Positions 2 through 61,014 of a DNA stretch of 64,000 bases are shown piece by piece (positions within the stretch are counted from its first letter, which is position 1; each line of letters starts with the position of its first letter). Source of the DNA: Hadesarchaea archaeon (GTDB lineage: Archaea > Hadarchaeota > Hadarchaeia > Hadarchaeales > Hadarchaeaceae). A model generated the notes under the pieces. It had not been told where the DNA came from. It did no database searches and worked only from the letters and a program-made list of their open reading frames with translations. The DNA lies in NCBI GenBank assembly GCA_029259175.1, contig JAPDJH010000015.1:1-64000 (forward strand), written 5' to 3'. The translations under genes were made by a program, and so were the position numbers.

Positions 2-3000
2 GGCGGCTCCTCCTCCGCCCCCTCCTGCCGCTTGCAAGTCGTAGTAGTTCGAATCATCCGCGTCTAGGTTGGCCGGGCTTCCTCCAACTTCGCTCCCGTT
101 CTCCAGCACGGTGTTCTCCTCGTAGTCCGTCTCGGTGCCCGAGCTTGTAGTGGCGATGGCCAGCGTGATTTGCCCCTCGGTGCTCGTGTCCACGTTCTCG
201 GAGGTGTCGTACTGGTTACCCCAGCTCCCGTCCGGGCCCCCCGGACCGCCGCTCCAGTCGGTCTGCGAGGCGGAACCCGAAGCACCGCCGCCAAGCGGGA
301 TCCCGTAGCGCAACCGGATGTTTTCGAGTTGCGGCGTAACGCTGGTGTCGGAGGTCTCTAGCACCACCTTGTACTGAGCGTAACGGGCGCGCACGTTAAG
401 CTTGTTCTCATTGTCCACTTGAATCCACGGTTGGCTCTGGATTCCAGACACGGTATTATCGAACCTCACATATACGGAGATAGAAGTTCCGGCTGGCGTC
501 GCGGCAGTCCAGTCTATGTAGTTCCATCGCGCATTTTCATTCGTGGTGTCGAAGACCGAAGAAGTGAACCATCCAGCCGATTTATAACTCATCGAGGCAT
601 TGGCCTCAACTCTCAGGTCGTCTATCTGGAAGTTCCTGTAGGCATCCCCGTTCGCGATAAACCTGATGTCCAGAGTTTGAACCGATCCGGGCACGTCGGT
701 GTAGGTCCACTGCTCCCACGTGTTTGCCGAGAGCTGGGTGGTGTTCTTGTTCTCCACCGTAACCCACCCGCCGCCGTCCTTCTGCACTTGGAAGGCTATC
801 CAAGCATCGGCGTCAGCCGTGTCGTCGTCCCGTGCCACCCACACGCTCACATTGCCGTTGTCATAGGATGAGAGATCCACGCTGCTAAAGGTGGCGGTCG
901 TGTTGTATGAGCTCGAACGGTACCACTCCAACAAATAGCTTCCCGAGTGTGGGTTCGTGCCGTCGGAACTCGTTACCTCGGAGAGGACTCCGGTGTCTCC
1001 GCTTTCGGTGTACGTCCAGTTGTCTCCAGACTCGAATCCCGTGCTCTTGACGGTTTCAACTGAGCCCTTTCCCGTATTTTCTAGCTCTATTATTCCGTCC
1101 TTCGACCAGTTCACGTTCTCATTTTCGTAGAACTTGGAATAGTCCGGGGTGAATGTTCCATTTTCTAAAGTGGGGTAAGTGGGTCCCTGAACCCAGTTTT
1201 CTTGCACCCACCAGTGCTGCTCTTCGGTCCAAGATTCCATCCGGATCACGATGTGATACGTGTTCCCCGCCGTGAGGGACACTCCGGAGCCGAACCCAAT
1301 GTACACCCACCCTGGGGCCGACCCTATGCTCACGGTGTTTTCGGGAATCAGGTTGTCCCCCGGGTTTCCACCTGAGTCGTCACAAATCGTTGCTACGAGA
1401 TCGGCGTACTTGTAGTTCTCCACGAAGACCCGCACACCGTACACGTCCACGTCCTCCGGGGCCCGGAAGCGCAGGCTGAGCTTCGAGGCGCTCGAATTCA
1501 GATTGTCAGAACTCAAAACGGAGTTCACCCGGAAGACGTTCCCAATCTGGCGGTTCTCGGGATCGGAGACGAGCACTAGATCGCCCACGCTCACCGTGCC
1601 GTCCAGATTCTCCGCCCAGTAATAGCGCGTGGAGTCCGACCACGCCAGCTGTCCGCTCCCGCCGCTCCAGTCCGTCTGGGTCCAGTAGTAGGTGGGAGTG
1701 GGTTGACCCAAGATGTAGGTGAGGCGAATCTCCCGGAATATCAGCGGCTGCGTGTTGTCCGCGCTCGCGTCGAACACCAGCTGGTACTGCACGTAGCGGT
1801 AGTAGTTCTCGAGCTCGGTTCCGTTGTCCACTTGCATCCACTCGCTCCACGTGCTGGCGTCGTTCGAGAACCGCAGGTAGGTGTAGATGCGATTCCCGGC
1901 GGGCTCCGTCTTATCGAGCTCCACACGGATAAAGGTGACCTGCTCGCCCATGTCGATGACGGGAGAGGTGTAGCGTCCGTAGTTGTAGTAAATCGGCGGT
2001 GCGAATCTCCAGAAATCGGTCGAGAACACGCTGCCGCCGCCTTTAGAGGTCCCATCGGGGAGCACATCGCTTCCGCCCTTGAGTACGTAGAGGTACCCGT
2101 CCAAATATATGAGGGAGCCGCCGTCGTCCATCCCGCCCAGCCGGTCCCAAGGCACGGGATCCATCTCAAACCACTGCCCCGCCGAAAGCGAATAATACAG
2201 GAAGCGGCCGTGATAATCGGATTCCGTATTGCTGGAAGTGTTGTGGAAGGAGTCATCGTATTCTTCATAGGAGCCGGGCACGTGATAGATTCGATCCCCT
2301 CCATCCCAAGCGAGCTGGGAGCCGTCGTCCGCCCCATACGGGTGGTCGGAGTCTGGCCCACACTTGGTCAGGAGCTCCCATGTTTCGGTGGTGAGATTAT
2401 AGCGGAAGAAGGCCGCTCCGCGATCCTCTGTGTTGAAACTTCCGTGATAGGCATCCCCATAGTGGTAGCGACCCACCATCACGTAGAGGTAGTTGTCTGG
2501 CTCGCCGATCGCCGATCCAGGGATGAAGACTGCGGCGTTTCCCGGACCCTGACCCACATCCAGCAAGTCGGTTGCTCCGTTCTTCCCTATCTCGCCGGCG
2601 TAGGTCCACGTGTCGTTGGAGATCGAGTAGTAGTAGAAGTCGCGCTGGTGGTCATTATATCCGCTGCCTGGAAAGAGATAGATACGATCTCCATGGTCCC
2701 AGACCAGGGTTGCGCCGTTGCGCGGATAAGTTTTAACTGCCGATCCGGACCATGGAATGTTATAGTTCAGTGTGTCGTCCCACCCCCCGCTCTCGGTGTA
2801 GCGGGCGAACCATGTGCCCTGTCCTGACCAGTAACCCTTGATGATGTAGAAGGCGTTCTCCCCGCTGGGTGTTTTGGCAACGCACGAGCCTATTCCATAC
2901 GCGCTGTAGAAGGGGGCGTCGGTCAGCTGGGTCCACTGGTCGGTCGATGGGTCGTAACAATAAAAGGCATACTGATTCGTCGCTGTGGTGGTGGTTCCGT

Positions 3001-5755
3001 TCTCACCACCGTAAGCCAGCCAGAAGTAAATCTTGCCGTTCATCGCGCCCATCCGGTGCCCGTTCTTGTCTCCCGGACCATACGGGGGCTGCGCGATGTC
3101 GGTCTCCCATCCGCCAGAAATCCGCTGGGGCTGGATCGAACCGCCCACCACCACGAGATTCTCCAGGGTGCCCTGCTCGAAGTCCCCCTTGGTGGTTTGC
3201 ACGTAGTGGAGGGGTAACGGGGGCCGCCACGTCCCTATCCCGTCGTAATAACGCACGGTGAGATTCCAGATCCGGGGCGTTACCGATGGATCCGACGTAC
3301 TCATGATCACACGGAACTGGAGAGCGCTAGCAATGGCATTAGCTTCACGCGTTTCAGCGTTTTCCTCATAATCAGTGCCGAACACGTCAGCCAAATCCTG
3401 ATTCCGCTGGATTTCTTTCCATTCGCTCCAACTGTAAGCTGGAGAATAGTCGGACACGTTTGGATCGTAGATCCGGGGCATATAACCGAGGCGAACTTCG
3501 ACTTTCAGGGACGTGCCCGCTGGAACATCCTGATCCCAATCGATATTAAGCCAGCGGACGCGGTGTCCGGGAGAAATGATCGGAGAGGTGTATGCCCCCA
3601 GGCTTCGGTGATTCGATAGTATCAGGCGGAACGGCAGATCCACGTTGTAATAGGGGGAAACGGCAACTGCTGCAGAATTGTCCAAGTTATCCGCTGAATA
3701 AGCCATGACCGCCTTGAAAGCGTGTGAGGTGGATCCGTCCCAGCTCACATTGGTCGGAAACGGACCGTCCGCGTTGTCCAGCGGAACAATATAATAGTCG
3801 TATTTGGTATAATTGCGCTCTCGCAGGTAGAGCCGGTAGTACCCGGGAGAGAGCACCACTGGAGAATCGAGTTCAAGCCGATACCAGCTGGGTTTGGTCT
3901 CCTTGCCCACTTGGGAGGGCTTCAGGGTGAAGACGTGTTGCCAAGTTGTGTTCTCCAGCACCACCTCGAGCGCGTAGGAGGGGCTTCCGTATTTGCGGAC
4001 AGGAATCTCGACAGCCATCAGGGTCATCGGGGAAGCAACGTAAAAGTTCTCACCCCACACGAAGTCGTTGTCATACCAACCGTCCGATTTAATTATGCCA
4101 GCGGAATACTCGTCGTCCGAATAGAGGAAGCTGATATAGAGTTCGTCGTCGCCATACGCGTTGATATCCCAATAGTAGTAACTGCTCGAGTAAAACTTGA
4201 AGCCGGGGTGGTAGGGGTTGCCGAAGTAAGTGTCATCGGCGTAGCGCACAACAAAAAGCGGCTCCACGTCGGAAAACGGATAGGAATACCCGAGCTCCAC
4301 CCAGTGAACGTTGACCTCGGAGGTCTCGCGGCCGTACCACAGGACCCCCCGGTCGCGCTGTGAAGGGGTGCCGTCTACCCACAACGGGTTGTGCGGACCC
4401 GTATGGGCAATTGAGTAGTAGGTGTACACGTTGGGGTAGTTGTAGGAAGCGTTGGGTGTGATGACCAAGTAATAGATGTTGTCCTTGTAGACTTGAGCGT
4501 GAAGGTTGTCAGCCCGAATCCAGCCAAAGTCGGCCCAGTTGGTGCAAGTCTCCCCATCGGGAAAACGCACGAGCACGGTGTTGCCAACCGAGGCGCCCGG
4601 GATGCCGTTTTGATCCTGGGCGATGTACACGTTGGCGGCGAGGTACTCGCGAGAACGGAAGTAAGCGCCCCAGCCGGTGGTCTCATCTTGGAGCTTCAGA
4701 CAGAGACTAGCGATTTTGTCACCGCTGTACTCGTTCTGGACGAAGCTCGTGACATCCCAGTAATAAGTGGCGTACCCGGAACTCACAAGCACGCTGTCAA
4801 GCGCAGTTGCATCGAATGCGGGTGCGTTGTTCCAAGTGATGGTGTCCTCCTGCCAAGAATCGTTAGTAACACTGTGGACTTCAACCGTGGGGTAGGTGCC
4901 CGTGCTGCTGGCATAAGCGGCGGAGCAAGAAAGGACGAGCTTGGCACTAGAAATAGACTTGCCAGTGGGGAGTTTAGAAAGATCGAACTTGAGATAGGAG
5001 CGGCGGATGTAGTCATACTTGGTGGAGTAGTAGACCTTGAGGGTGTCCTCGTCTCCAAAGTTTGTGTTGATCTCGTTTTTGTAATCCTCGTTGTCCACGT
5101 AAGCGTCCGCGCTGGCGTAGAGATAAATGTAGCTCCCGTCAGTGAAAGTCACTTTGAGGCTCGGGAACTCGGTGGCGTAGAGGTAGGCGTAGAACCACGC
5201 GTTCTCGATGTTCTCGGTTTTGGTTGCGCGGAAGCGGAAGGCCACTGAGAAGTTATAAGAGGTCATCTCGCCGGCTTTGATACGATGGGTGTTGGTATAC
5301 CACGGATTGCCCCACCACTCGTTCTCTAGGTGGATTTCGCCGTTTTCCTCGATCCGGATGTTCTCGTGGAGGCCGTTCTCCGTGGGGGGCATCCCCTGGA
5401 TGAGGGAGGTGCGGGTATTGAAAACCTCGGCTTTGAGTACCGGGCCCTCGTCGGCCACCGCCTCCACGTCGGAAGTCACGGGCAGGGCTCCGGCCGTGGT
5501 TTTTTCGAAGGCAGGGACGCTTATGGTGACGGTCTCATAGGGCTGGAGCTCCGGAGAGAGTATCTCCTCCTGAACGCTCAGCACGCTCTGCTTCACGAGG
5601 GATGAGTGAATGGATTCGCTGCGGTGCTGCAGGCGGGGGACCACAGTCATATAATAGAGAGATGTGGAGATTATGAAAATAGTAACCAACATGATTGCAG
5701 CTACGGATACCCATACTCCGCGCTCGTCTGGGACCAAATAGCGTGATCTGCCCAT
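2..5755 (-). CDS. Giant (>1918 aa, 3'-partial) surface/adhesin-like protein with class III (type IV pilin-like) signal peptide, DNRLRE-like domain, kelch beta-propeller and repeated beta-sandwich modules
   Basis: Hand translation from ATG 5755: MGRSRYLVPDERG/VWVSVAAIMLVTIFIISTSLYYMTVVPRLQHRSE. The frame stays open to the window edge (...DSNYYDLQAAGGGGGGAA), so it is absent from the ORF track. Motifs: ADAYVD..NFG..RSYLKFDLS (DNRLRE-like) and YDPSTDQWTQL / FYYYSISNDTWT / FRYNLTTETWE (kelch). Confidence 0.9.
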   Translation of the reverse strand, partial: MGRSRYLVPDERGVWVSVAAIMLVTIFIISTSLYYMTVVPRLQHRSESIHSSLVKQSVLSVQEEILSPELQPYETVTISVPAFEKTTAGALPVTSDVEAVADEGPVLKAEVFNTRTSLIQGMPPTENGLHENIRIEENGEIHLENEWWGNPWYTNTHRIKAGEMTSYNFSVAFRFRATKTENIENAWFYAYLYATEFPSLKVTFTDGSYIYLYASADAYVDNEDYKNEINTNFGDEDTLKVYYSTKYDYIRRSYLKFDLSKLPTGKSISSAKLVLSCSAAYASSTGTYPTVEVHSVTNDSWQEDTITWNNAPAFDATALDSVLVSSGYATYYWDVTSFVQNEYSGDKIASLCLKLQDETTGWGAYFRSREYLAANVYIAQDQNGIPGASVGNTVLVRFPDGETCTNWADFGWIRADNLHAQVYKDNIYYLVITPNASYNYPNVYTYYSIAHTGPHNPLWVDGTPSQRDRGVLWYGRETSEVNVHWVELGYSYPFSDVEPLFVVRYADDTYFGNPYHPGFKFYSSSYYYWDINAYGDDELYISFLYSDDEYSAGIIKSDGWYDNDFVWGENFYVASPMTLMAVEIPVRKYGSPSYALEVVLENTTWQHVFTLKPSQVGKETKPSWYRLELDSPVVLSPGYYRLYLRERNYTKYDYYIVPLDNADGPFPTNVSWDGSTSHAFKAVMAYSADNLDNSAAVAVSPYYNVDLPFRLILSNHRSLGAYTSPIISPGHRVRWLNIDWDQDVPAGTSLKVEVRLGYMPRIYDPNVSDYSPAYSWSEWKEIQRNQDLADVFGTDYEENAETREANAIASALQFRVIMSTSDPSVTPRIWNLTVRYYDGIGTWRPPLPLHYVQTTKGDFEQGTLENLVVVGGSIQPQRISGGWETDIAQPPYGPGDKNGHRMGAMNGKIYFWLAYGGENGTTTTATNQYAFYCYDPSTDQWTQLTDAPFYSAYGIGSCVAKTPSGENAFYIIKGYWSGQGTWFARYTESGGWDDTLNYNIPWSGSAVKTYPRNGATLVWDHGDRIYLFPGSGYNDHQRDFYYYSISNDTWTYAGEIGKNGATDLLDVGQGPGNAAVFIPGSAIGEPDNYLYVMVGRYHYGDAYHGSFNTEDRGAAFFRYNLTTETWELLTKCGPDSDHPYGADDGSQLAWDGGDRIYHVPGSYEEYDDSFHNTSSNTESDYHGRFLYYSLSAGQWFEMDPVPWDRLGGMDDGGSLIYLDGYLYVLKGGSDVLPDGTSKGGGSVFSTDFWRFAPPIYYNYGRYTSPVIDMGEQVTFIRVELDKTEPAGNRIYTYLRFSNDASTWSEWMQVDNGTELENYYRYVQYQLVFDASADNTQPLIFREIRLTYILGQPTPTYYWTQTDWSGGSGQLAWSDSTRYYWAENLDGTVSVGDLVLVSDPENRQIGNVFRVNSVLSSDNLNSSASKLSLRFRAPEDVDVYGVRVFVENYKYADLVATICDDSGGNPGDNLIPENTVSIGSAPGWVYIGFGSGVSLTAGNTYHIVIRMESWTEEQHWWVQENWVQGPTYPTLENGTFTPDYSKFYENENVNWSKDGIIELENTGKGSVETVKSTGFESGDNWTYTESGDTGVLSEVTSSDGTNPHSGSYLLEWYRSSSYNTTATFSSVDLSSYDNGNVSVWVARDDDTADADAWIAFQVQKDGGGWVTVENKNTTQLSANTWEQWTYTDVPGSVQTLDIRFIANGDAYRNFQIDDLRVEANASMSYKSAGWFTSSVFDTTNENARWNYIDWTAATPAGTSISVYVRFDNTVSGIQSQPWIQVDNENKLNVRARYAQYKVVLETSDTSVTPQLENIRLRYGIPLGGGASGSASQTDWSGGPGGPDGSWGNQYDTSENVDTSTEGQITLAIATTSSGTETDYEENTVLENGSEVGGSPANLDADDSNYYDLQAAGGGGGGAA

Positions 5756-5836
5756 TGCGGCCCCGAGTGGAGGTCGATGAGAGAGCACAAAAAGGGATTC
5801 TGTAATCTATGGATTTTTCACAAATACGTGAAAGGT

Positions 5837-9679: not shown

Positions 9680-10792
9680 CTATGGAATTATCTCACAGCC
9701 GTTAAACTCCAAAAACTGGAAATCTTCATATTTGACTACACCACTCTTGATAAGTCCTCTTATCTGCGGAAGTGTACGTCTTAGTGAGTTTACAAGATTC
9801 TCCACAGTCTTGCACACCAAGCGATACGAGCTCCAACTCCAGCGCTTGAGAACATTAGCATAAAGACATCGTCCGCCACACCAACGATAGATATGACAAT
9901 CGTGACACCGATCACCAACAAATACTTCGGGAAGACCAATCGGGCTAGAGTTCCTGATATCTCCTAAATAGAACTCCCGCATCCCCCACATGCTCGGGCA
10001 GGGAATTATCCGTCCATCTGTCTGAATCGCATAATTGGCCCACCCAGCTCCACACCTGAGTTTGCTCGGCTTGCCTTCCAACAACGACTTGGCAATCCCT
10101 AAAAACGGGTAGATGCGCAGAACTTTTCCTTTCTTCATCTGGTCTACCCAAAACCGAACGAGCCTTCTAATCCCTGGATTGTAGCTGTCCTCAACCCATC
10201 GCTCAAAATCACGGCGCTCGAAATCGTTCCAGAACCCAGCGTTGAGCTGCCAGTGAACGGACGGAAAGCTGAACTCGTCGTTGTCGAGCAACCAGCGCAC
10301 CTCTTCATATATGTCCACGGGCTCCATCACAGTCATTCGCGCAATCAGCTCTCCCCCGAATCCCTGCTTCACAACGTGCCGAACGTTCATTATCACTTTC
10401 TTGAAAGTGCCCGCACCCCGGAAAAAATCGGTGGTGCTCTCGCGACCATCCACCGAAACCGCGATCGTGTGCAATCGCCTAATGTAGTTGGCATCCAGTT
10501 CGTGAAGCAGGGTTCCGTTGGTTTGGATCAGAAAGCGTTTGGCTGGGACGCGATCCATTATCTGTTTGATTCTATCGATCTGCAGGAGTGGTTCCCCCCC
10601 ATAAAATATCAACGAACAATCAGGATCCAGCGAGCAAAACCGTGCCAGATCATTCACATCATACGAGATCTCGGATGGCAAATCATAATCAAACGATACG
10701 CCCACATCAACACCGATATCGCGCACAGCTTCCTCATAACAATACTTGCACCGCAGATTGCAGTCGGTGGTGATGATCAAGTGAAAGAACAT
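9680..10792 (-). CDS. Radical SAM/SPASM protein, AF0577 (TIGR04084)-like putative peptide-modifying enzyme
   Basis: CNLRCKYC, FYGGEPLL, QTNG, SPASM cysteines CGAG...IPCP...CHDC..RWCGGRC. Confidence 0.85.
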   Translation of the reverse strand: MFFHLIITTDCNLRCKYCYEEAVRDIGVDVGVSFDYDLPSEISYDVNDLARFCSLDPDCSLIFYGGEPLLQIDRIKQIMDRVPAKRFLIQTNGTLLHELDANYIRRLHTIAVSVDGRESTTDFFRGAGTFKKVIMNVRHVVKQGFGGELIARMTVMEPVDIYEEVRWLLDNDEFSFPSVHWQLNAGFWNDFERRDFERWVEDSYNPGIRRLVRFWVDQMKKGKVLRIYPFLGIAKSLLEGKPSKLRCGAGWANYAIQTDGRIIPCPSMWGMREFYLGDIRNSSPIGLPEVFVGDRCHDCHIYRWCGGRCLYANVLKRWSWSSYRLVCKTVENLVNSLRRTLPQIRGLIKSGVVKYEDFQFLEFNGCEIIP

Positions 10793-13700
10793 TCATCCAC
10801 CTCGCGCCGTCTTTTTTTGTTCCTGAGCTTTTCTGCCAGCGGAAAGAGCAACTCATAGTATTCGTCAATAATCGTGCTTCTCCTGACGCTCGGGGCGGCT
10901 ATCTGGATCGGCTTCACCTTTCTCCGCATCCCAATCGAGCGACGCGTCACGAAATAGAGTGCCGCTACGCCGGATCCCATTCCGAACATGACCAAAACCG
11001 GCACGCCGCCGTCCGGGACAGAAGAGACCAGCTCCACCCGTTTCGAATCCAGCACCGCACCGGCCAGATCACTCAGAACCACCTCCGTCTCCCCCTGAAT
11101 CGTTTCCGGAAGGGGGAGGTAGATGCATCTCACCGAGTTTTCACCGGGCGCTGCTACAACCGAAAAGGAAACTTCAGCGTCCCCTACTTTCAGAACCAGC
11201 GTTCGCTCCACCGGGTGGTCTGAAGGATTCTGGACCAACACATCCAGACCGACGAAGCCATCTCGGATTTCGAGCGGCCCCCGGAGCAACAATGTGAACG
11301 ACGGAGCTGGAGCCGCAATGCCGATCGCGAACCGCGAAAAGGAGTGAACCGACGCCCGGTATCGGACCCGCTCGCGGTCCTGCCCAATGATTTCGGTCGG
11401 CAGCTCGATCACGTTGTTATCTCCGAGTTCGAAAAGATGTACATCTTCCGGATAACCACGCGCCTCGATCCACTCGCGCACAACCGTGAACTCGAGGCTT
11501 CCACCAGAATGCGTGATCCCAGAACCCAAAATTTCGAACACAGCATATGCCTCCAGCTCCGGGACACACCCGGCATTTTCCTCACCCACAAGCACCACCG
11601 AGCCTTGCCCGTCCACGGCGTCAATCATCAAAACCATTTTAGTGACCGCGTGATTAGAAAACTGGAGCTCGGCTTCGCCCATTGCTGTGACCAACTCCAC
11701 ATTGGGCAGGTCAACTGTAAAAGCCTCAAGCGCTACGGCAGAGTTCCCATGAACATCGCTTGCCGAAACCACCAATGAGTGGGGTCCCTCCGAGAGGTCA
11801 GAGAGCTCAGCAATCAGATGATCACCGGCCCATTCGAACCCGATCGGAGTGTTGTCGAGCATAACAACTATCGAATCCACGTCGATTTCGGAGTTGTCCT
11901 CTATCGTAACTTCAAGCGAAAACCGCATCGAACACAAGGTTTCGGGCAGATGGAACTCGAGTAGCGGAGATTCTGAATCCGAAACCGACGAGACTTCCAC
12001 GCCCGAGTTCGTGTCTCCAACGGATTGACTAGTTTCTGATTTCAAACTGAAGGACGCTAACACCCAATCAGACCATTCGAGCCCGTCGAATACGGACACG
12101 CCCGCGTAGTACACAACACCTCGGGAGAGATCCGGTCCTTGGTAACGGAGCGAGTTATCAAATCCTGATCCCTCATAAAACCACACGTCATCAGTCCCTG
12201 CCGAGGTCCCTACCTTCACCCGATATTTCATTTGCCGATCGTTATCGGCATCAGAATAGCTCCAGCTGAAAACGGGTTCTTGCGTTTCAAGCCCCGCGGG
12301 ATTGCTTTTGCCGTTCACCAAGAGTTCGCACACTTGAGGGAGCTGGTTTACGATGAAGGAAGCCCGCGTCCAACGCTCGGCGTTGTCGGCGTTCTGCCAC
12401 TCCAACTGTGAATCTCGAACAACCACGCGAACATAATAGGTTTGCCCGCGGATCAGTTCCAGTCCATCATAGATTTTTTCGTGCGTGGTGTGTCCCTCTC
12501 CGCTCCAATCCCACAGATCGTTGTTGTCCGGCGTGCTCCCGACCTGTATCCTGACACCAAGCTGCGAATCGTTTGGGTTATTATCGTGGAAAGACCAAGC
12601 AAAAGTCGGAGTGAGACCGACCTTAGCTGGCAAGAGCCTATTATCTGCTTTCAGCTCGGCGGCAATGGGGAGAATGTTAAACCGGAAAGTCTGGCTCCGA
12701 ACCTCCCAGAGCGGCCGATCTGCGTTATCAAAGACCGAAAGAGCCTTGTATCCTGATTCGATTTTTGCCGAGTGCGGCACGACGATAGTTCCGGATCCGT
12801 TCGAAATTGTCCCTCTTATCTCTGCGTTCTCTGGGAGGTAAACGGTACCATTCGCAGCACCGCCGTCGGATGCCCACTCTCCATCGAAAATCACTATCGT
12901 TCTGTCTTCTTCTCTATCCACTACATAATTGAGCAACCTCAGGTTGTCCCCTTCGACTTGGTAGGTGACGACCTGGGAAACACCATCGAGTACACCATCT
13001 CTAGCCCACGCGCAGATGCGTCCCTTATCTCCGCGACGCAAACGGACTGGCGAGACAAGCCCGTAGTCTTTGGAAAAAGAGTTGTCACCGAAATCCGCGA
13101 CGATCTCTCCTTGGTTGTTATCGGCGATCACTACATTGTTGAGGCTCGTAAGCTGGTTTTCATAAATCCTGAACGCGCTCCCGCTCACCTCGAGCTGCCA
13201 GATCGGAGTGTTGTCTGCGACGGATAGATCGACCCTCAAATCGTTCACGACGAACAGATCCGCACCCATCCCGTCGAAGTTCTCGTTATCAGTCGTCCCA
13301 TAATTGTCGGAAACCCACACCTGCACATCAAACAGACCCAGGGCCGCATCTGGAAGAGAGTCTGCCGGATCGTAGAGGTAATAGAACACCCGTGTGTTTT
13401 CATCCACTTCCGCGTAGTCTGAAAAGGCCACATTTTCCAATACTGGACGATTCCTCGCGTCTCGAATCCATATACGAACATTTTCGGGAGATAGAGTCGC
13501 GGCCCCGCCGCTGTCTTTCACCGTGACCGAAATCAGAGTAGCACCTGCTGCCCCTGAGGAATCAACTCTTCTGTCCACTACCTTGTTGTCACAGGCTATC
13601 GAAAGGATTTCAGGAGGAAAGCGCTCCAAACGAAAAGTCACGGAGGAATTTTCACCAAATTCTCTTATTGCTGTGACCTTCCAGAACAGGTCCCCCTCGG

Positions 13701-14853
13701 GAGGCGAAAGACTGAAAGAAGTTGAACCAACAACAAGATTCTCCACAACACTGGTGAAGGAGGGATCTCGTGCGATCGTCAACCTGTAATTGTCTGCACC
13801 TGCATCAGACCACGTGAACCGAACGGTTGGAGAATTGCAGATTGAGTTGTTTTCAGGCTCCAGCAAAAAGGGAGCTCCGCTAATATATACGGTTCCTTCG
13901 CTTCCGGGAGCACCCTTGGCCGAAGCACGCGAAGTGTTTCCGCTAGAACCGCCAGAAACATCGAGCGAGCCAGAAATGTCGAGCTGACCAGAAAATATTT
14001 TTATTCTGCCCCCGCCTCCTCCTCCACCAGAACCAGCGTATTGCCCAGCCGCAACCGAGCCGCCAGCCCCTCCCTTCGCACTGATGGCGCCCGAAATGTG
14101 TACCTCCTTTCCCTCAATCAATACTCCTCCTCCCGATCCACCTCCACCAGCGCAATACTCCAGTGGCGGACTCTTGCCCCCTGCCGCACCATCTGCGCTA
14201 ACCGTTCCATTAATGGTTAAATTTTCACTGGCGATCAGAACTATTTTTCCTCCCCCTCTTCCTCCAAGTGCCGAGTAGCCACTCCCGGCCAGGGTGGGAT
14301 CTGCAGAATCACCTCCTTGGCCTCCCGAACCACCATATCCTCCGCCCCCACCACCCCCAACATAGCGCACACCAGACTGACTCGAACTCCCTCCGCCCGA
14401 ACCCATCTCCACCTCGTGAGAAGAAAGAGAACCATAGGAGGATCCGCCACCGCCTCCGCCCCCTAACCCAGACACACTTTCTCCTGCTCCGGGACCGGAG
14501 GAACTAGAATAGCCCGCACCGCTCGCGCTTAGTGTTCCTTCAATCACTATGTTTTCGGCATGGATTTCTACCCATCCGTAATTCGTCCCATCGTACGCTG
14601 CAACCGTGACCGTGACCCCCGCCGCGATCTTGAACAGCCGGATGTTGTAGTGATTGCCAGCGATGGTCGTGTTTGACGTGATTATCCAGTCCTGCCCGCC
14701 GTGGTCGCCTCCATCCAGATAGGTCCAAGCACTAGCACTCGGAAGCGTCCAAAACTGCACAATCACTAAAAACAGCACGCCGCACCATATCGGCCTTGCA
14801 CCTCTAGCCTCGGATCTGCCTCCCATGAGCCCGCCTCGGAAGATTTTCCTCAT
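10777..14853 (-). CDS. 1358-aa exported surface protein: signal peptide, Gly-rich domain, Fn3-like repeats, PGF-pre-PGF-like domain, C-terminal TM anchor
   Basis: Signal ending PSASA/WTY; GGGGGGG runs; two PxFxWS...Q..Y.V.VG...D.W repeats; WIEARG...ELPTE...YRASVHSFSRFAIG; TM VPVLVMFGMGSGVAALYFV followed by RR. Start may be Met10 (14826). Confidence 0.85.
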   Translation of the reverse strand: MRKIFRGGLMGGRSEARGARPIWCGVLFLVIVQFWTLPSASAWTYLDGGDHGGQDWIITSNTTIAGNHYNIRLFKIAAGVTVTVAAYDGTNYGWVEIHAENIVIEGTLSASGAGYSSSSGPGAGESVSGLGGGGGGGSSYGSLSSHEVEMGSGGGSSSQSGVRYVGGGGGGGYGGSGGQGGDSADPTLAGSGYSALGGRGGGKIVLIASENLTINGTVSADGAAGGKSPPLEYCAGGGGSGGGVLIEGKEVHISGAISAKGGAGGSVAAGQYAGSGGGGGGGRIKIFSGQLDISGSLDVSGGSSGNTSRASAKGAPGSEGTVYISGAPFLLEPENNSICNSPTVRFTWSDAGADNYRLTIARDPSFTSVVENLVVGSTSFSLSPPEGDLFWKVTAIREFGENSSVTFRLERFPPEILSIACDNKVVDRRVDSSGAAGATLISVTVKDSGGAATLSPENVRIWIRDARNRPVLENVAFSDYAEVDENTRVFYYLYDPADSLPDAALGLFDVQVWVSDNYGTTDNENFDGMGADLFVVNDLRVDLSVADNTPIWQLEVSGSAFRIYENQLTSLNNVVIADNNQGEIVADFGDNSFSKDYGLVSPVRLRRGDKGRICAWARDGVLDGVSQVVTYQVEGDNLRLLNYVVDREEDRTIVIFDGEWASDGGAANGTVYLPENAEIRGTISNGSGTIVVPHSAKIESGYKALSVFDNADRPLWEVRSQTFRFNILPIAAELKADNRLLPAKVGLTPTFAWSFHDNNPNDSQLGVRIQVGSTPDNNDLWDWSGEGHTTHEKIYDGLELIRGQTYYVRVVVRDSQLEWQNADNAERWTRASFIVNQLPQVCELLVNGKSNPAGLETQEPVFSWSYSDADNDRQMKYRVKVGTSAGTDDVWFYEGSGFDNSLRYQGPDLSRGVVYYAGVSVFDGLEWSDWVLASFSLKSETSQSVGDTNSGVEVSSVSDSESPLLEFHLPETLCSMRFSLEVTIEDNSEIDVDSIVVMLDNTPIGFEWAGDHLIAELSDLSEGPHSLVVSASDVHGNSAVALEAFTVDLPNVELVTAMGEAELQFSNHAVTKMVLMIDAVDGQGSVVLVGEENAGCVPELEAYAVFEILGSGITHSGGSLEFTVVREWIEARGYPEDVHLFELGDNNVIELPTEIIGQDRERVRYRASVHSFSRFAIGIAAPAPSFTLLLRGPLEIRDGFVGLDVLVQNPSDHPVERTLVLKVGDAEVSFSVVAAPGENSVRCIYLPLPETIQGETEVVLSDLAGAVLDSKRVELVSSVPDGGVPVLVMFGMGSGVAALYFVTRRSIGMRRKVKPIQIAAPSVRRSTIIDEYYELLFPLAEKLRNKKRRREVDECSFT

Positions 14854-33992: not shown

Positions 33993-35117
33993 ATGCAGAT
34001 TGGCTACGTGTCGACTTTTCTTCCCCAGCGGTGCGGAATCGCCACTTATCTCGATTATCTTACTAACCCGCTCAGAAAACTCGGAGTCGACATCAAAATC
34101 ATCGCGGAAAAAGAGGCTGCAGCACGCGCGGAGAATGGCTTTGAAGTGATCCCGTGTTGGGGACGAAAGGAGAACTATGTAGAGCAGATTCTACACCACG
34201 CTCAGACAGTAGATGTGCTCCACATCCAGCATGAGTATTCCATTTATGGCTTTGACGATCGGTTACCCACGTTGCTTCGAACCCTAGAGGGCAAAGTGAA
34301 GCGAGTCGTGACCATCCACTGTATTCGGCCAGCACAGTTCAGCGAACGAGGAGCCGTCGACGAGCAATACGCGAAAAGGATTGCCGAACTCGCGGACGCG
34401 GTCATCGTGCATCTTGAAACGCAACGAGATATCCTGAGAAGATTAGGAATCCCAGCAGAGAAAATCAACGTCATCCCACACGGGAGTGAATTAATCAAGG
34501 TGGACCAAATAGAATCTCGCAAAAAACTAGGCCTGCCGCTTGATGCAAAACTCATGCTAATGTTTGGGTTCATCAAGCCACACAAGTGTTTGCATGTAGT
34601 AATCGAAGCCATGCCCACAATCTTGGAGAAGGTGCCCAACGCGATTCTCTTTGTCGCCGGAGGTCTTGCACCCACAGCTCCACCAGAGCACCAGGCTTAC
34701 GTGCAGCGGATAGAAAAACAAATAAGCGAACTCGGGATTCAAGCCCACGTTATTCTGCCGAACAAATTCTTTCCCAACGAAGATGTTCCGCATCTCTTTG
34801 GAGCTGTAGACGTTGTCTTGTTCCCATACTATGAGGAAGATCGATCGGCTTCTGGATCTTTTCATCTCGCATTGGGTGCTGGAAAACCCATCGTGGCTTC
34901 GAGAATCCCAAAATTTGAAGAACTAAAAAATGTGTGCGACGAATTGCTAATTTTGCCTCACAACTCCAGCGGCCTCGCAAACGTGGTGGTGCGATTGTTC
35001 ACGGATACTGCTTTTCGAAACTTCGTGGAAACTCGAACCAAAACATATGCAGAAAAAACATCGTGGGAAAACACAGCTAAAAAACATCTAGATCTCTATA
35101 CAAAAATTGCGGGGTAA
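33993..35117 (+). CDS. Glycosyltransferase family 4
   Basis: PQRCGIATY, HIQHEY, VIPHG, FGFIKPHK, SASG...ALGAGKPIV. Confidence 0.92.
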   Translation: MQIGYVSTFLPQRCGIATYLDYLTNPLRKLGVDIKIIAEKEAAARAENGFEVIPCWGRKENYVEQILHHAQTVDVLHIQHEYSIYGFDDRLPTLLRTLEGKVKRVVTIHCIRPAQFSERGAVDEQYAKRIAELADAVIVHLETQRDILRRLGIPAEKINVIPHGSELIKVDQIESRKKLGLPLDAKLMLMFGFIKPHKCLHVVIEAMPTILEKVPNAILFVAGGLAPTAPPEHQAYVQRIEKQISELGIQAHVILPNKFFPNEDVPHLFGAVDVVLFPYYEEDRSASGSFHLALGAGKPIVASRIPKFEELKNVCDELLILPHNSSGLANVVVRLFTDTAFRNFVETRTKTYAEKTSWENTAKKHLDLYTKIAG

Positions 35118-35120
35118 AAA

Positions 35121-36278
35121 ATGAAAATCAAAAACACCATCGGAGACGGAAAAGTTGTCGTCACTGAGCGCGGACACCATATCTTTCAACTAGAATCTCA
35201 TGCGAACAACCCTGTTGTAGGGCCGCGAGATCTGGGCTTGGTGTGGCACGAAAACGGTAAAGAAAAACTTGGGGCGGTGTTTAACGGTGGAGCAATCTAC
35301 TATAAAAACCACGTGTGGCTGACCCCAAGATGTCACCAGCGTTATTATAAAACGACCTTCTTTGATCCAAAGCTCCAACGTGAGCGTGTGTGTTTAGAGA
35401 ACTATGTCTCCGAAGTGCGCGTCCTGAAAAGCGAAAACGGAATTCGCTTCCGACCCACTGGCGTCACGATCTACGGGGACGGACGAGATCATGATGACTT
35501 CAAATATGGGATTGAAGACATCCGCATCATTCCATGTAACGATTTCTTTGTAATGGTTGGTTGTGGCAAAACCGGGCCGCCGTTCAAAGCCTCTGGAGCC
35601 GATCGGATAGCAGTGTACACAACCACAGATTTTAGAAAAATCGAATATCGGGGAATCGTGGATGTGTTCGATAGCAGAAATGCTATTCCTCTTTTCACTG
35701 ATACACGCGATTACATTTTTCTGAGATTTCATCCAAACATCCACGTAGAAGTCTTAGAAGGTGGACGCGAACAACTACTGAATCCAAGAAAATATCGAGA
35801 AAAGTGGATTGAAATCTACAATCGCCGAGAGCGCACTCTGCTCTTTAGAGCGGGAGACTTTCCCCACGAGCGAGAAAAGATAGGACCATCAACTCCGCTA
35901 ATCGAAACCGAAGCGGGCTGGTTGTTTTTGTATCATGGTGTGGGGGAAATCTTCGCCGATATTGCCAAAACCTACGGTCTGAGCCAAGGAATCGAGAGAG
36001 GATATTCTGTCTGTGCTGCTTTGCTTGATCGAGAGGATCCGAGTCGAGTGCTTTACCGATCCAAGTGGCCCATCTACATCCCGCATCACCCTTGGGAACT
36101 CTGGGGAAACGAGCAGTTCCCGGTCGACGTGCCAGCAGTAGTGTTTCCCGTCGGAGCCTTTACTTTGGACAAAAAATTGATGGTCTATGCGGGAGCTGGA
36201 GACAAATACGAGACACTTTTGGGATGTGAACTAAAAGCTCTCGTCGATTATCTAATAGAATACGGCCAACCCCACTAA
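35121..36278 (+). CDS. GH130-like beta-propeller glycosidase/phosphorylase
   Basis: AVFNGGA, GIEDIRI, KIGPS.P.IET..GWLFLYHGV, LLD.EDPS.V, VVFPVGA, YAGAGD. Confidence 0.88.
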   Translation: MKIKNTIGDGKVVVTERGHHIFQLESHANNPVVGPRDLGLVWHENGKEKLGAVFNGGAIYYKNHVWLTPRCHQRYYKTTFFDPKLQRERVCLENYVSEVRVLKSENGIRFRPTGVTIYGDGRDHDDFKYGIEDIRIIPCNDFFVMVGCGKTGPPFKASGADRIAVYTTTDFRKIEYRGIVDVFDSRNAIPLFTDTRDYIFLRFHPNIHVEVLEGGREQLLNPRKYREKWIEIYNRRERTLLFRAGDFPHEREKIGPSTPLIETEAGWLFLYHGVGEIFADIAKTYGLSQGIERGYSVCAALLDREDPSRVLYRSKWPIYIPHHPWELWGNEQFPVDVPAVVFPVGAFTLDKKLMVYAGAGDKYETLLGCELKALVDYLIEYGQPH

Positions 36279-37543
36279 CTTATCACTTGGTAAACTCTGA
36301 GATTTTCGTATGAGAAAGCCAAAGGGAACCCTAGTTCCACTAGGTAGTTCTCTTCTGGGGATTGCTGGTATACCATGACAAAACTTGCGTTTTCGCTTAG
36401 CAACAGGTCATAATATTCCGCGGCATTTTCATATGAGGAAAACTCGTGTAGTTCCACTCCCGAATTGGAGAATCGTACACCACCAAATGGAAGAACGTAA
36501 AGAGCGGAACCATCGCCAGAGTACCGAACATATCCATCAGTGAGAATCTCCAAAATCTCGTTCTCAGCAAGCAGATTTTCGTAGACCTCTGGGTTGTCTG
36601 CACGCGCGAGAGTTGGATTCAAACAAACCATGAAAACCGAAATGACCATGGCAAAAGCCGAGACAGGGCAAACAACTTGTCTCAATCTGGAACCCACCAG
36701 CTCAACGTAGAACGGAATGGAGATGAAAATGACAAACCAAGCCATTCGCTCAAAATAAGCTGTGGGAGCATAACCGGCCGCCAGACTTATTGCGAGGGCT
36801 GCCAAAGCTATCGCACAGGGCACTCTAGAACTCTGACGTGTAGCGAACAATGTTATCAGCGAGCTAACGAGCAAAAGGGTGGGAGGAAGGTAAATCTGAC
36901 CACCACCCTCAGAGCCGCCCAAAAAGAAAACAGCTTGTACCCCGGAAAGAACACAAACCGGGAGATAATACTTCAACCAGTTTTTAAGGTCAAACCTCAG
37001 CATAAGAATGGCAGCCAACAAACCTATGCACAACGGATGGGTAATGATCGAAATCGCACCCAAAACTGCGGCAACAACGCGCTTTCCCTCTAAGTAGTAG
37101 TTCAAAGAGAGAACCCCGAAGACCACACCCCACAAAAAGGGCATTTTTGTCGTTACAAAAAGCATTACTGTCAACGGATTCAGCAGCACAATGATTGTTG
37201 CCAAGCGTGCTATTCTCGCTGTGGCCAGCTTAGAGAACAATTGCTGGGAAAAATACCATAAAAGGCAGAAAGCGATTACAAGCAGAACCGCTACCGTATA
37301 AACCCTAAAGACTGGGTAAATCAGAACTCCCAACAGAAGGGGAATCGCCCCGTATTTTAACGTGAACTCAGTTCCGTGACTGAGATAAGGATCGGTAATG
37401 TAGTAGCCCTGAGTCAAAGCCCAGATCCTGTGAAGGTGATAGGGGTAATCTGTATCAGCAGTTAGATTTTGCCAAAAAATCCAGCCGAAGAGAACGGCAT
37501 AAAACACGATAGAAACTGCCACAAGCTTTCTCCAGAAATCCAT
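36275..37543 (-). CDS. Polytopic membrane protein with GT-C-like N-terminal loop and C-terminal extracytoplasmic domain
   Basis: TM then D.DYPYHL.R...DPY...G....Y (pattern of GT-C/PTPS-related membrane proteins), about 11 TMs; start ATG 37543 with RBS GGAGGAGG. Confidence 0.65.
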   Translation of the reverse strand: MDFWRKLVAVSIVFYAVLFGWIFWQNLTADTDYPYHLHRIWALTQGYYITDPYLSHGTEFTLKYGAIPLLLGVLIYPVFRVYTVAVLLVIAFCLLWYFSQQLFSKLATARIARLATIIVLLNPLTVMLFVTTKMPFLWGVVFGVLSLNYYLEGKRVVAAVLGAISIITHPLCIGLLAAILMLRFDLKNWLKYYLPVCVLSGVQAVFFLGGSEGGGQIYLPPTLLLVSSLITLFATRQSSRVPCAIALAALAISLAAGYAPTAYFERMAWFVIFISIPFYVELVGSRLRQVVCPVSAFAMVISVFMVCLNPTLARADNPEVYENLLAENEILEILTDGYVRYSGDGSALYVLPFGGVRFSNSGVELHEFSSYENAAEYYDLLLSENASFVMVYQQSPEENYLVELGFPLAFSYENLRVYQVIS

Positions 37544-37615
37544 GTCCTCCTCCCTTGAAAGTGAGTAAGGAGGTTTAAAAATTTGTTCAAGGCCAACGCA
37601 AGCGGACCCTACACA

Positions 37616-37703
37616 TGGCGCCGGGGGAGGGATTTGAACCCTCGAGGCCCAGAGGGCCACGGGCTCTCAAGGCCCGCGCGCTTCCTGGCTACGCCACCCC
37701 GGC
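37616..37703 (-). tRNA. tRNA-Ser(TGA), long variable arm, CCA encoded
   Basis: GCCGGGG acceptor/CCCCGGC-G-CCA; anticodon arm CGGGC-CTTGAGA-GCCCG; T arm GAGGG-TTCAAAT-CCCTC. Confidence 0.96.
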
Positions 37704-40131: not shown

Positions 40132-43100
40132 ATGTCGACGCTGGCAGACAAGATATTCGAAGAGTTCAGGGAACACAGTGTTAGCGAGTTCTTTAGAAAA
40201 AATGCAGCCATGTTAGGATATACGGGTAAAATTCGCTCGCTTACCACCATCATCCATGAGGGGGTCACTAACTCCATCGATGCTGCGGAAGAAGCGGGAA
40301 TTCTCCCACGCGTCTATGTAGCTATAAGAAATGCGAGCACCAGCCCGGAGCACTACCGGGTGATAATCGAAGACAACGCAACGGGGATTCCGGAGGAACA
40401 CATAGCCAGTGTCTTCGGGAAGATGCTGGCCGGGACCAAGCTCCACCGCTACATGCAGCAGCGTGGCCAACAGGGGATTGGAGTCTGTATGACTGGAGAT
40501 ACAAAAGTTCCAATGGCAGATGGTTCGATAAAACGGATAGATGAAATAGTTTCCAATGATCTGAGAGGCAAACAAGTTTTGACATTAGGGCCAGATTTCA
40601 AACTCCGGCCGTCCAAAATTATAAAATGTTGGAAGATTCCGGCCCCACAGCATTTAGTTGAGCTAAAACTTCTTACGGGAAAAACGATTAAGCTCACCCC
40701 TGAAAACCCCGTTCTCGTTTTTCGTGATGGGCAGGCTGAGTGGGTAAAAGCGAAAGACATCAAAAAAGGGATGTTCGTTGGGATTTCAAAACGTCTGCCA
40801 GCGAGCTCGTCAAAGATACCTCGAGTTTTAGATATTATAAGGAAGGAAGGGCTACGCGTAGACGCGCCTGAGACGACTTCAAAATTCATAGATATTCTCA
40901 TAAAAAAACACGGAAGTCTAAAAAAGGTGTCCAAACAAATCGGAATTTCTTACGATCGGCTCAGAAATTGGACGAGACGGATGCCGAATGGAAATCCACG
41001 CGGTAGGCCAACCGTCAACGAATTCCAGATTCTTGCCAAGGCTGCCGGAGAAAATGATAGTTCAAGGCTGATAACTCGAGTGGGTAGAAATGGCTTTTAC
41101 GTAAACATCCCCCAGACGGTAAACGCAGATTTGATGTGGTTTGTGGGAGCGATGGCTGGCGATGGACATATCGGAAGCCCTGAGAACAAAAGGTGGGGTC
41201 ATGCTCTGTTTTTCCACAACAAAGATTTGGAATTATTAAATCGCGCTGAGCGCATCCTCAAGAATGTTTTCGGTTTGAGAGTAAAGCGGTATTTCGATGT
41301 GAGAAGGGGAACTTTCACATTGGAGACGTCTTCTTCGGTGGTGGCGGAAATCCTACGATATTTTGGGGTTCCCGCGGGCAACAAGACACTGACGTTGAGT
41401 ATACCCGATTCAGTATCTCGACTCCCAAACGATTTGCTCGCGGCATACTTGCGTGGTTTCTTCGACACCGATGGAGGGCTTTCTCGCCGATATCGCGAAA
41501 TCACTTTTGGTTTGATAAACAAGGAAGTGGTGGAATGCATGGCCCTTCTGCTCTTAAGATTTGGTATTTTCTCTAGGTTCAGAGTGAACAAAGAAGGCCA
41601 CAAAGTAAGTTATCAATTGGTTGTGAGCGGCAAGGAGAATCTCGTTCGTTTTGCAGAGGTTATCGGGTTTACCTCAGCGAAAAAGCAAAAGCAACTCCAA
41701 GAGTTCATCCAATCCTTTAAAGGTTCCTCCCAAAATGCATTTTTCTTCCCAGGCATACAAGCCCAGATAAGACGCCTATATCGAGCCCGCAATATCCCGT
41801 ACCATAAAATTCCATCTCGGGTGTGGAGTTCCTTCTATGCTCAGGGAATGACCCCCGGTTCTCTCACCGCGGCTTTGGACGTGCTTGAGGATCTCAACTC
41901 CTGGACTGATGTGGAATATCTGAAGGCGTTGGCTGAGGGAGATGTAGCTTGGGTAAGGGTAGTGGAGTCCAAGCTTGTTCCCGCCCAAGTGGAATATGTT
42001 TATGATTTGACTGTCGAGAACTCGCACAACTTCGTGGCAAATGGGATAATAGTCCACAATAGTGGCGCCACTATGTTTGCCCAGATGACCAGCGGAAAAC
42101 CAGTCAAAGTGACTACTTCCACCGGGAGCGGAGAAATAGTGGAAGCCGATGTGATGATCGATGTCACCAAAAACGAAGGGAAGATAGTGAGCATCAAGAA
42201 GAGGAAGGGGAGGTGGCGTGGTACCCGGGTCGAATTCGAGGTCAAGGAAGTCGTATACGTGCGCTCCCGCTACGGGCCCTTCAACTATCTGCGGATGACC
42301 GCCATAGCAAATCCGCACGTTTACATTCGATTTGACGAGCCGGATGGAGTAGTCACCATCTTCGAAAACGCCGTCACAGAGGTTCCCAAGCCGCCCAAAC
42401 CAATGAAGCCGCATCCTTGGGGAATGATGGCTGACGACTTGCTAAGACTAGCCAAACAGAGTAAAGCAAAAAAAATTACTTCTTTTCTGGCTTCGGATCT
42501 AGCCCGAGTCAGCTCCGCAAAAGCAAAACAGGTTTGCAAGCTGGCCGGAGTGGCTGAGAACAGATCACCTGGTGAACTAACGTGGGAGGAGGCTGAACGG
42601 TTGATAAAAGCTTTCAAGCAGGTAAAACTGCTTGCCCCTCCATCCGAAGGTTTGCGACCCATCGGAGCTGAAAACATCATAAGCGGGATGCGTCAGGTCT
42701 TGAAACCGGAATTCGTGCATGCCATTACACGTCCGCCCAAGGTATACAGAGGAGGGGTGCCATTCTTGGTAGAAGTGGGAATTGCGTACGGAGGAGAGGC
42801 CGGAAAAAGAACCGCCGAAGAAGTTGGGGAGGAGCAAGGTATCGAGCTAATTCGCTTTGCCAATCGTGCTCCGCTCATCTTCGACCAAGGAGCTTGTGCC
42901 ATAACAACGGCGATGCGCTCAGTCGATTGGAGGCGATACGGTATCGACATAGCAAGCTCGCCGGTGACCCTCTTCGTCAATGTGGTTTCCGCTTATGTGC
43001 CCTACACGTCAGCAGGAAAACAATCCATCGCAGAGGAGCCAGAAATAGTGGCTGAACTCAGAGCAGCCATGATGGAAGTGGCCCGAGAACTAAGACTCTT

Positions 43101-43284
43101 CCTAAATCGGAAGATAAGAATAAAGGAGAAAAAAGAGCGGGCGAAAGTGTTCGAGCGCTATCTCCCAATAATTGCGCAGAAAGCTGCTCGACTGGCGAGG
43201 ACCCGGCCGCCCGAAATAGGTAAGCTTCTCAGAAAAATTGCGGGTGAGTTGAATGACGCAGGTGAAGGGAAGCAAGAAAGCTAG
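40132..43284 (+). CDS. top6B: DNA topoisomerase VI subunit B (intein-containing)
   Basis: [53 protein letters not shown]. Confidence 0.97.
40486..42060 (+). mobile_element. Intein (525 aa) with LAGLIDADG homing endonuclease in top6B
   Basis: QQGIGV|CMTGDT...[21 protein letters not shown]|SGA; endonuclease blocks [10 protein letters not shown] and [11 protein letters not shown]; AT-richer than the exteins. Confidence 0.96.
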
Positions 43285-60806: not shown

Positions 60807-60843
60807 CCAATAACTTAAGTTTTCAGCATTAATAGGAATGTTT
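60807..60843. promoter_or_regulatory. 37-bp AT-rich divergent promoter region shared by argS and tRNA-Arg
   Basis: CCAATAACTTAAGTTTTCAGCATTAATAGGAATGTTT, with TATA-like elements on both strands. Confidence 0.5.
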
Positions 60844-60918
60844 GGGCCCGTGGCGCAGCCAGGATAGCGCGACAGGCTTCGGACCTGTAGGTCGCGGGTT
60901 CGAATCCCGCCGGGCCCG
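60844..60918 (+). tRNA. tRNA-Arg(TCG), CCA not encoded
   Basis: GGGCCCG/CGGGCCC-G acceptor; ACAGG-CTTCGGA-CCTGT anticodon arm; GCGGG-TTCGAAT-CCCGC T arm. Confidence 0.96.
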
Positions 60919-61014
60919 CTTGTTTTGTTTCGAGGATTAATGTTGCCCCTTTTCTCCTTATAAACAACCTTCGTGCAAAGCGAAAGCGAGAAATGCCCAC
61001 AAGGTGAAAAAGCA

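Follow-up and report, generated by a model that had tools for sequence, protein, structure and literature searches.

A [DE]-N motif enriched in the exported proteins of Hadarchaeales and an AglB homologue with an altered WWDYG motif as its candidate reader

Exported proteins of the archaeal order Hadarchaeales are enriched in asparagine residues immediately preceded by aspartate or glutamate (the dipeptide [DE]-N), and the single homologue of the oligosaccharyltransferase (OST) AglB found in the genome that we analyzed in most detail lacks the canonical WWDYG motif. The starting point was a stretch of 64,000 nucleotides from Hadesarchaea archaeon (assembly GCA_029259175.1, contig JAPDJH010000015.1, positions 1 to 64,000), referred to below as the window. 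An earlier reading of the window, made from the sequence only, had noted the dipeptide in several extracytoplasmic domains and had proposed a lineage-specific D/E-N acceptor site, for example for a non-canonical N-glycosylation. The bias, its restriction to a lineage and an alteration in the OST stood up to the analysis presented here; the glycosylation itself we infer.

With a probability of roughly 0.6, we think that the AglB of Hadarchaeales recognizes [DE]-N-{P} in place of N-X-S/T. The sole OST found in the order retains the predicted glycosyltransferase C (GT-C) fold together with putative acidic catalytic motifs, but has other residues in place of the WWDYG motif that serves the Ser/Thr at position +2. 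In such a system, it would pick the asparagine through the acidic residue at position -1 and would still refuse a proline at position +1. The abundance of [DE]-N in exported proteins and extracytoplasmic domains would then be the outcome of selection for sites at which glycans are attached.

Enrichment of [DE]-N in exported proteins

The window is one contig (C7) of a Hadarchaeota metagenome-assembled genome of 1.306 Mb in 23 contigs, which is 90.9% complete (G000). Genes (1343-1354 in number) were called with our own codon-usage-scored open reading frame (ORF) picker, and export and membrane classes were assigned from Kyte-Doolittle 19-residue hydrophobic segments only. The expected number of [DE]-N dipeptides was calculated protein by protein from the composition of each protein. 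On this basis, 143 exported proteins contained 676 [DE]-N in their mature parts, compared with 240.3 expected (2.81x), while the cytoplasmic proteins (n = 1003) contained 875, compared with 843.9 expected (1.04x). The enrichment suspected from the window is therefore present genome-wide after correction for composition, and cytoplasmic proteins do not share it.

The ratio of observed to expected dipeptides (O/E) was raised in every class with a hydrophobic segment. It was 2.59 for proteins with an N-terminal hydrophobic segment only (107 proteins), 3.43 for proteins with N- and C-terminal segments (35), 2.51 for multi-pass proteins (120), 1.43 for proteins with a C-terminal segment only (27), and 1.68 for those with one internal segment (61), as against 1.04 for the cytoplasmic class (993). 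Both acidic residues contributed. In the exported mature parts, EN was found 409 times (133.1 expected, 3.07x) and DN 272 times (105.8 expected, 2.57x), and these two headed the list of all 400 dipeptides; among those expected more than 10 times, the runner-up reached 1.89x. The corresponding cytoplasmic values were 1.18x for EN and 0.74x for DN. At the level of single proteins, the O/E exceeded 1.5 in 81 of 119 exported proteins, and enrichment was individually significant (p<0.01) in 37 of these 119, versus 7 of 1003 cytoplasmic proteins. Two Ig-like proteins encoded on C14 and C16 had 48 of 76 and 37 of 59 asparagines in [DE]-N. Asparagine as such was also more common in exported proteins (4.5% versus 2.6% of residues).

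The sequence-only reading had called for a comparison with related genomes, and seven genomes, each sampled over 200-400 kb, were taken through the same pipeline. Exported proteins were enriched in all six genomes of the order, by 1.66-3.45x: a genome of the same genus (G003) had 177 [DE]-N for 53.1 expected (3.33x), one of the same family (G010) 50 for 26.7 (1.87x), a member of family f2 (G025) 58 for 22.4 (2.59x), a member of family f5 (G034) 61 for 17.7 (3.45x), and two members of family f4 76 for 45.8 (G038, 1.66x) and 72 for 31.9 (G033, 2.26x). The seventh genome, G041, lies outside the order and has an AglB with the canonical WWDYG; its exported proteins contained 79 [DE]-N for 79.6 expected (0.99x). 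Cytoplasmic [DE]-N had an O/E of 0.86-1.08 over all comparative samples and of 0.89-1.08 within the order.

Could the signal be an artefact of gene calling, of classification, of a few repeat-rich giants or of a nucleotide word? The ORF caller and the export classifier were home-made, and giant repetitive proteins do supply many sites, with 97 in one protein of 5142 aa. However, the O/E was 2.80 after removal of the 10 largest proteins and 2.86 in mature parts shorter than 300 aa, and the excess extends over most exported proteins, as described above. Eight of eight [DE]-N codon pairs contribute to the enrichment, and we rejected an explanation by a DNA word for this reason. Moreover, the pipeline that finds the bias in the order does not find it in G041 or in any cytoplasmic set, and counts made by hand agree with it. 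An artefact is thus close to refuted, and we regard it as very improbable.

The signal was confined to a single position next to the asparagine. In a positional scan, only position -1 stood out around exported asparagines, with D at 2.60x and E at 3.05x, whereas D and E at position -2 were at 0.88x and 0.81x, and S and T at position +2 were at 0.96x and 1.02x. The N-X-S/T sequon was not enriched (O/E 0.95 for exported proteins versus 0.94 for cytoplasmic ones), in agreement with the original claim that the bias is distinct from this sequon. The reverse dipeptide N[DE] was at 0.76-0.93x in the two exported classes and hence not raised, indicating that the [DE]-N signal is directional. Weaker features of the context were a depletion of R, T, Q and H at position -2 and an enrichment of I and W at position +3.

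Proline was depleted at position +1. It occurred at 0.37x at 675 exported [DE]-N sites, versus 1.68x at 1121 other exported asparagines, the latter value being similar to that of NP in cytoplasmic proteins (1.76x). A strict bar on proline at position +1 is a defining property of the OST sequon (PMC8342417).

An AglB homologue with an altered WWDYG motif

Searching the genome for matches to Pfam STT3 (PF02516) brought up one STT3-family gene. This aglB/STT3 homologue codes for 737 aa and is located outside the window (G000:C2:47725-49938). Its product scores 29.4 bits against Pfam STT3 (gathering cut-off 24.5) over residues 63-286, and a profile built from 17 homologues matches human STT3A at positions 82-483 (E 1e-19). 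The AlphaFold2 model of the protein had a mean predicted local distance difference test score (pLDDT) of 85.1 and a predicted template modelling (TM) score of 0.82. When this model was compared with the PDB using Foldseek, the best 19 matches listed were all STT3, PglB or AglB (E 1.5e-15 to 2.5e-11, TM about 0.5-0.6), among them yeast and human STT3, PglB (6gxc, 5ogl, 3rce) and Archaeoglobus fulgidus AglB. The next matches after the OSTs were DPY19 structures (E 7.5e-10).

To our knowledge, every OST described so far has WWDYG or, more generally, WWDXG. This motif and the DK/MI motif together form the pocket for the Ser/Thr at position +2 (PMC8342417), and AglB contains WWDXG with variation at the fourth position only, according to a 2024 review (PMC11407970). 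The Hadarchaeal protein has QWSFG(H) at this position, so that the inspection for altered WWDxG motifs suggested by the sequence-only reading met with a variant in the only homologue. The profile alignment places WSyGH opposite WWDYGY of STT3A, and the residues flanking QWSFG can be aligned one by one with those of STT3A as well as those of the canonical G041 AglB. Of the Ser/Thr pocket motif, the variant has lost both the first Trp and the Asp. After an invariant GRR, the family consensus reads D-V-Q-R-x-P-x-M (D536-I-Q-F in G000), which resembles DxxKxxxM by spacing only. A DG following the motif helix is conserved as well.

The acidic motifs expected of a catalytic subunit appear to have been retained. 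The second acidic motif, GAFD151RE, aligns with GSYDNE of STT3A, and among 17 sequences D151 was invariant and R152 nearly so. TTSD38SG, the candidate for the first acidic residue in external loop 1 (EL1), and YASE298M, the candidate for the TIXE/SVSE motif in EL5, were likewise invariant or nearly invariant, with the reservation that the hidden Markov model alignment to STT3A did not extend over EL1 and gave the EL5 motif no clear position. By its predicted fold and putative catalytic motifs, the variant should thus be counted in the STT3/AglB family, from which it departs at WWDYG. The invariance of the catalytic motifs across the order implies that the enzyme is probably active.

The altered motif is a property of the order. 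The pattern [QEP]WS[FYH]GH was found in 29 homologues from 40 relatives in the order and also in those of G038 and G033, and every homologue of the order whose motif was read had the variant. G041, the one genome of the phylum sample outside the order, has an AglB with WWDYGY. When this canonical AglB was used as the query, it retrieved from the other 65 phylum genomes the variant gene only, and weakly (best E 8e-20); a canonical AglB was not found in any of the ingroup genomes searched in this way. The [DE]-N bias thus tracks the AglB variant. The weakest bias (1.66x, G038) occurs together with the motif PWSYGH.

The pattern xWS[FYH]GH was detected at 44 loci in a scan of GTDB species genomes, of which 40 had Hadarchaeota-type titles, two were titled "uncultured archaeon", one "Methanobacteriota archaeon" and one "Hodarchaeaceae". 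A search of 1.84 billion representative proteins with the AglB profile gave 57 matches at E<=1e-30, then a gap, with ordinary STT3/AglB proteins starting at about 1e-29. At the WWDYG position, more distant members of this OST subfamily (P0048, P0049, P0054, P0055, P0059 and P0062; E 1e-75 to 1e-39) differ again, with the motifs HWELG, DWEIG, PWPVG, DWYLG, PFGIG and HWEMG. For P0055, nothing closer than the known aglB was found among the 66 phylum genomes.

Several further observations concern the aglB gene itself. A gene for a Wzx/MurJ-type flippase (G000:C2:54783-56342; L188:4845-6404) lies about 5 kb from aglB and is followed by two further ORFs. In some relatives (L004, L005, L029 and others), the open frame of aglB comprises 1100-1180 aa, and the variant AglB of some genera appears to carry a long extra C-terminal extension. 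Many aglB homologues appear to start with TTG, judging from predicted starts.

A different extracytoplasmic enzyme might also read the motif. [DE]-N would then be the target of some other Asn- or Asp/Glu-modifying activity or of another GT-C protein, and the variant AglB would have a specificity of its own. This possibility gains from the fact that the AglB motif and the bias are linked by co-occurrence on one branch only, and from DPY19, a GT-C enzyme with a non-Asn acceptor, following directly behind the OSTs among the fold matches. A gene of the window may also seem suggestive in this respect, as a multi-pass membrane protein without a Pfam family (36275..37660, - strand) adjoins genes of the GT4 and GH130 families. 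We considered this protein as the responsible GT-C and rejected it: searches recovered it from only 14 of 66 phylum genomes, and G001-G003, G025 and G034 were not among them. The three of these that were sampled (G003, G025 and G034) all show the bias, which makes the protein a substrate-like carrier of the motif rather than the enzyme. More generally, only one STT3-family gene was found, and the exclusion of proline at position +1, together with the loss of the +2 pocket, fits an OST in particular. On these grounds, and with no genome-wide search made for further enzymes restricted to the order, we consider another enzyme improbable, and recognition by the variant AglB the better account.

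The cluster at 33993-37660 of the window comprises the GT4 glycosyltransferase gene, a gene similar to GH130 mannoside phosphorylases and the gene for the Pfam-less multi-pass protein. In view of the patchy spread of the latter, one possibility is that the cluster is a glycan module of a mobile or accessory nature.

Carriers of the bias in the window and conservation of their sites

One carrier in the window is an exported surface protein of 1358 aa (10777..14853, - strand). It combines a hydrophobic segment at the N-terminus with a Gly-rich part resembling a beta-helix, Ig-like domains (Pfam Ig_Rha78A_N) and a membrane anchor at the C-terminus. A scripted count found D (18) or E (13) before 31 of its 62 asparagines, although D and E make up 12.9% of its residues, which predicts about 8 such pairs. 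S or T followed at position +2 in only 3 of the 31 sites. A giant exported protein (2..5788, - strand), of which 1929 aa are seen, did not enter the genome-wide set because it runs off the contig, and it provides an independent sample. Here, 45 of 113 asparagines were preceded by an acidic residue, and proline followed in 0 of these 45, versus 5 of the 68 other asparagines.

The remaining carriers are membrane proteins with extracytoplasmic parts. A CPBP/Rce1-like membrane protease (PF02517; 8116..9678, + strand) has an extracytoplasmic insert after its first membrane segment, in which 6 of 8 asparagines are in [DE]-N. An EMC3/DUF106-type insertase (PF01956; 16932..17783, - strand) combines a signal peptide with an extracytoplasmic extension at its N-terminus, in which the count is 3 of 4. 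In the C-terminal domain of the Pfam-less multi-pass protein the fraction is 7 of 9, and it becomes 7 of 8 on omission of an asparagine at the membrane edge; an ADNP in this protein is one exception to the exclusion of proline. The counts for these three regions and for the giant protein were made by hand on the translations. For these five proteins, the counts in the sequence-only reading could be reproduced: those for the 1358-aa protein exactly and by script, those for the insert and the extension on recounting, that for the C-terminal domain with the stated omission, and that for the giant protein at the upper end of the estimated 40-45. The genome-wide cytoplasmic value takes the place of the single controls AOR, PckG and RtcB.

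In order to judge whether the sites are maintained, we compared the 1358-aa protein with its best homologues, which were found in family f5 (G034, locus L205, and G031, locus L206) and are 55-56% identical to it. Out of 26 aligned [DE]-N sites, G034 keeps 18, with one more shifted by one residue, and G031 keeps 15 (counted by hand). At 55% identity, two independent residues would both be kept in about 30% of cases, and the sites thus appear to be retained beyond the expectation for two residues. D and E interchange at several of the conserved sites. Genomes of the same genus gave only partial or weak matches to the protein, and the position of the closest homologues in family f5 suggests transfer among Hadarchaeales or a rapid turnover of surface proteins. 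In the EMC3 extension, G003 and G034 have [DE]-N at the same places; G041 has no such extension. G038 has two tandem EMC3-like genes (L197 and L199; G038:C3:66775-68416), one of which has N-S-T at the place of [DE]-N. We also sought G041 orthologues of a DUF5667 protein and of a transglutaminase-like protein for a comparison of swapped sequons, but found neither. Searches for archaellins (PF01917), which are classical reporters of glycosylation, in G000, G003, G025, G034 and G041 gave no match.

The bias might also be a physico-chemical or structural adaptation that involves no covalent modification. Acidic residues before asparagine could serve hydration, cation binding or the protection of asparagine in hot fluids, and the change in AglB would then be unrelated or would belong to a decaying system. 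A modification is here inferred from sequence, and some details of the context would suit such a role. At position +1 of [DE]-N, the bulky residues I (1.58x) and F (1.43x) are favored, while G (0.75x) and N (0.63x) are disfavored, and a bulky residue, with few G or N, is a context that slows deamidation of asparagine. The placement of the sites may point in the same direction. An AlphaFold2 model of residues 320-960 of the 1358-aa protein (P0001), built from an alignment of three sequences, was too poor for an informative map of the sites (pLDDT 50.4); in its confident parts, four of only six sites were in loops, three of these just before strands, with one further site at the start of a strand and one inside a strand. 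The sequence of AglB itself is also not enriched.

Other observations do not agree with an adaptation of this kind. The absence of N[DE] enrichment speaks against simple cation binding or charge effects. Proline at position +1 blocks succinimide formation, and yet it is depleted rather than favored. The higher share of asparagine in exported proteins is not what avoidance of a labile residue would produce. A helical DUF5667 protein has 9 of its 11 asparagines in [DE]-N, and the bias is therefore not tied to beta-rich folds. Finally, the sister lineage lacks the bias, and AglB retains its putative catalytic motifs without variation throughout the order. Taken together, we hold such an adaptation to be unlikely, although somewhat less so than another enzyme.

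A further feature of the window is the gene for the B subunit of topoisomerase VI (40132-43284, + strand). Its ORF of 1050 aa contains matches to Intein_splicing and LAGLIDADG_3 of Pfam, which mark an intein that interrupts the gene and carries a homing-endonuclease domain of the LAGLIDADG type.

Relation to known systems and significance

Several points weigh against a rewritten sequon that is read by AglB. The case for glycan attachment is built from statistics on metagenome-bin genomes. A single branch gave rise to both the variant and the bias, and one outgroup genome was compared with it; this amounts to one evolutionary event and not to a replicated correlation. Within the order, the spread of the bias (1.66-3.45x) is not explained by the AglB motif. 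The invariant R533, R534 and H470 are candidates for reading the carboxylate at position -1, but R533 and R534, which directly precede the DK-like helix, lie in a loop modelled with low confidence (pLDDT <50 at 525-534). AglB itself has 3 [DE]-N among about 31 asparagines by hand count, which is no enrichment. When loops of 68 multi-pass proteins were assigned to sides by the positive-inside rule, inside loops contained 37 [DE]-N for 18.2 expected (2.04x) and outside loops 75 for 28.7 (2.61x); the topology calls were crude, and the two sides were not separated. Lastly, export was predicted by hydrophobicity only, and the "exported" set includes at least one cytoplasmic protein, arginyl-tRNA synthetase (58944-61088, - strand), for which the longest TTG start wrongly adds a hydrophobic N-terminus. 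This ORF has 2 of 25 asparagines in [DE]-N, as expected for a cytoplasmic protein.

The likeness of the variant to archaeal AglB and eukaryotic STT3 extends from the Pfam STT3 score, the match to STT3A and the best folds, all of which are OST catalytic subunits, to the DxE-type motif GAFDRE, the YASEM sequence resembling SVSE/TIXE, and the single copy in G000. The difference lies in the replacement of WWDYG by [QEP]WS[FYH]GH in the order. Similarly, the exported proteome differs from that of a canonical N-X-S/T system in being enriched in [DE]-N instead, but shares with it the avoidance of proline at position +1.

Halobacterium salinarum is reported to glycosylate its S-layer protein at Asn-2 independently of a sequon. 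This would be an archaeal precedent for N-glycosylation without Ser/Thr at position +2, although it concerns one site and one type of glycan and not an acidic residue at position -1 throughout a proteome. DPY19 C-mannosyltransferases share the GT-C fold and demonstrate that this scaffold can evolve other peptide acceptors; unlike them, the Hadarchaeal enzyme groups with OSTs by sequence and by predicted fold, and the selected residue is asparagine. In bacterial PglB, an upstream acid is part of the acceptor motif, the extended sequon being D/E-X-N-X-S/T (PMC4894442). PglB has the fold predicted for the variant AglB, which like PglB would be associated with an acid upstream of the asparagine, but in PglB this acid is at position -2 and S/T at position +2 is required, whereas here the acid is at position -1 and S/T at position +2 is neutral.

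N-X-S/T is held to be universal across life's three domains, and WWDXG to be an element of the enzyme that does not vary (PMC11407970, PMC8342417). The literature that we searched contained no report of a D/E-N sequon, of an AglB without WWD or of glycosylation in Hadarchaeota. We give about even odds that the AglB of Hadarchaeales is the first natural OST with a sequon other than N-X-S/T, in which the hydroxyl at position +2 would have been exchanged for a carboxylate at position -1 and the exported proteome rewritten to match.

If this is true, the exchange of the code in a whole order would show that the sequon can evolve, and would provide a natural experiment on how OSTs read their substrates. 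Prediction of glycosylation sites from the canonical sequon would fail in such lineages, and the variant AglB could supply glyco-engineering with an enzyme for an orthogonal tag of two residues. Given the wider clade of OST homologues without WWD, uncultured archaea may harbor additional private sequons.

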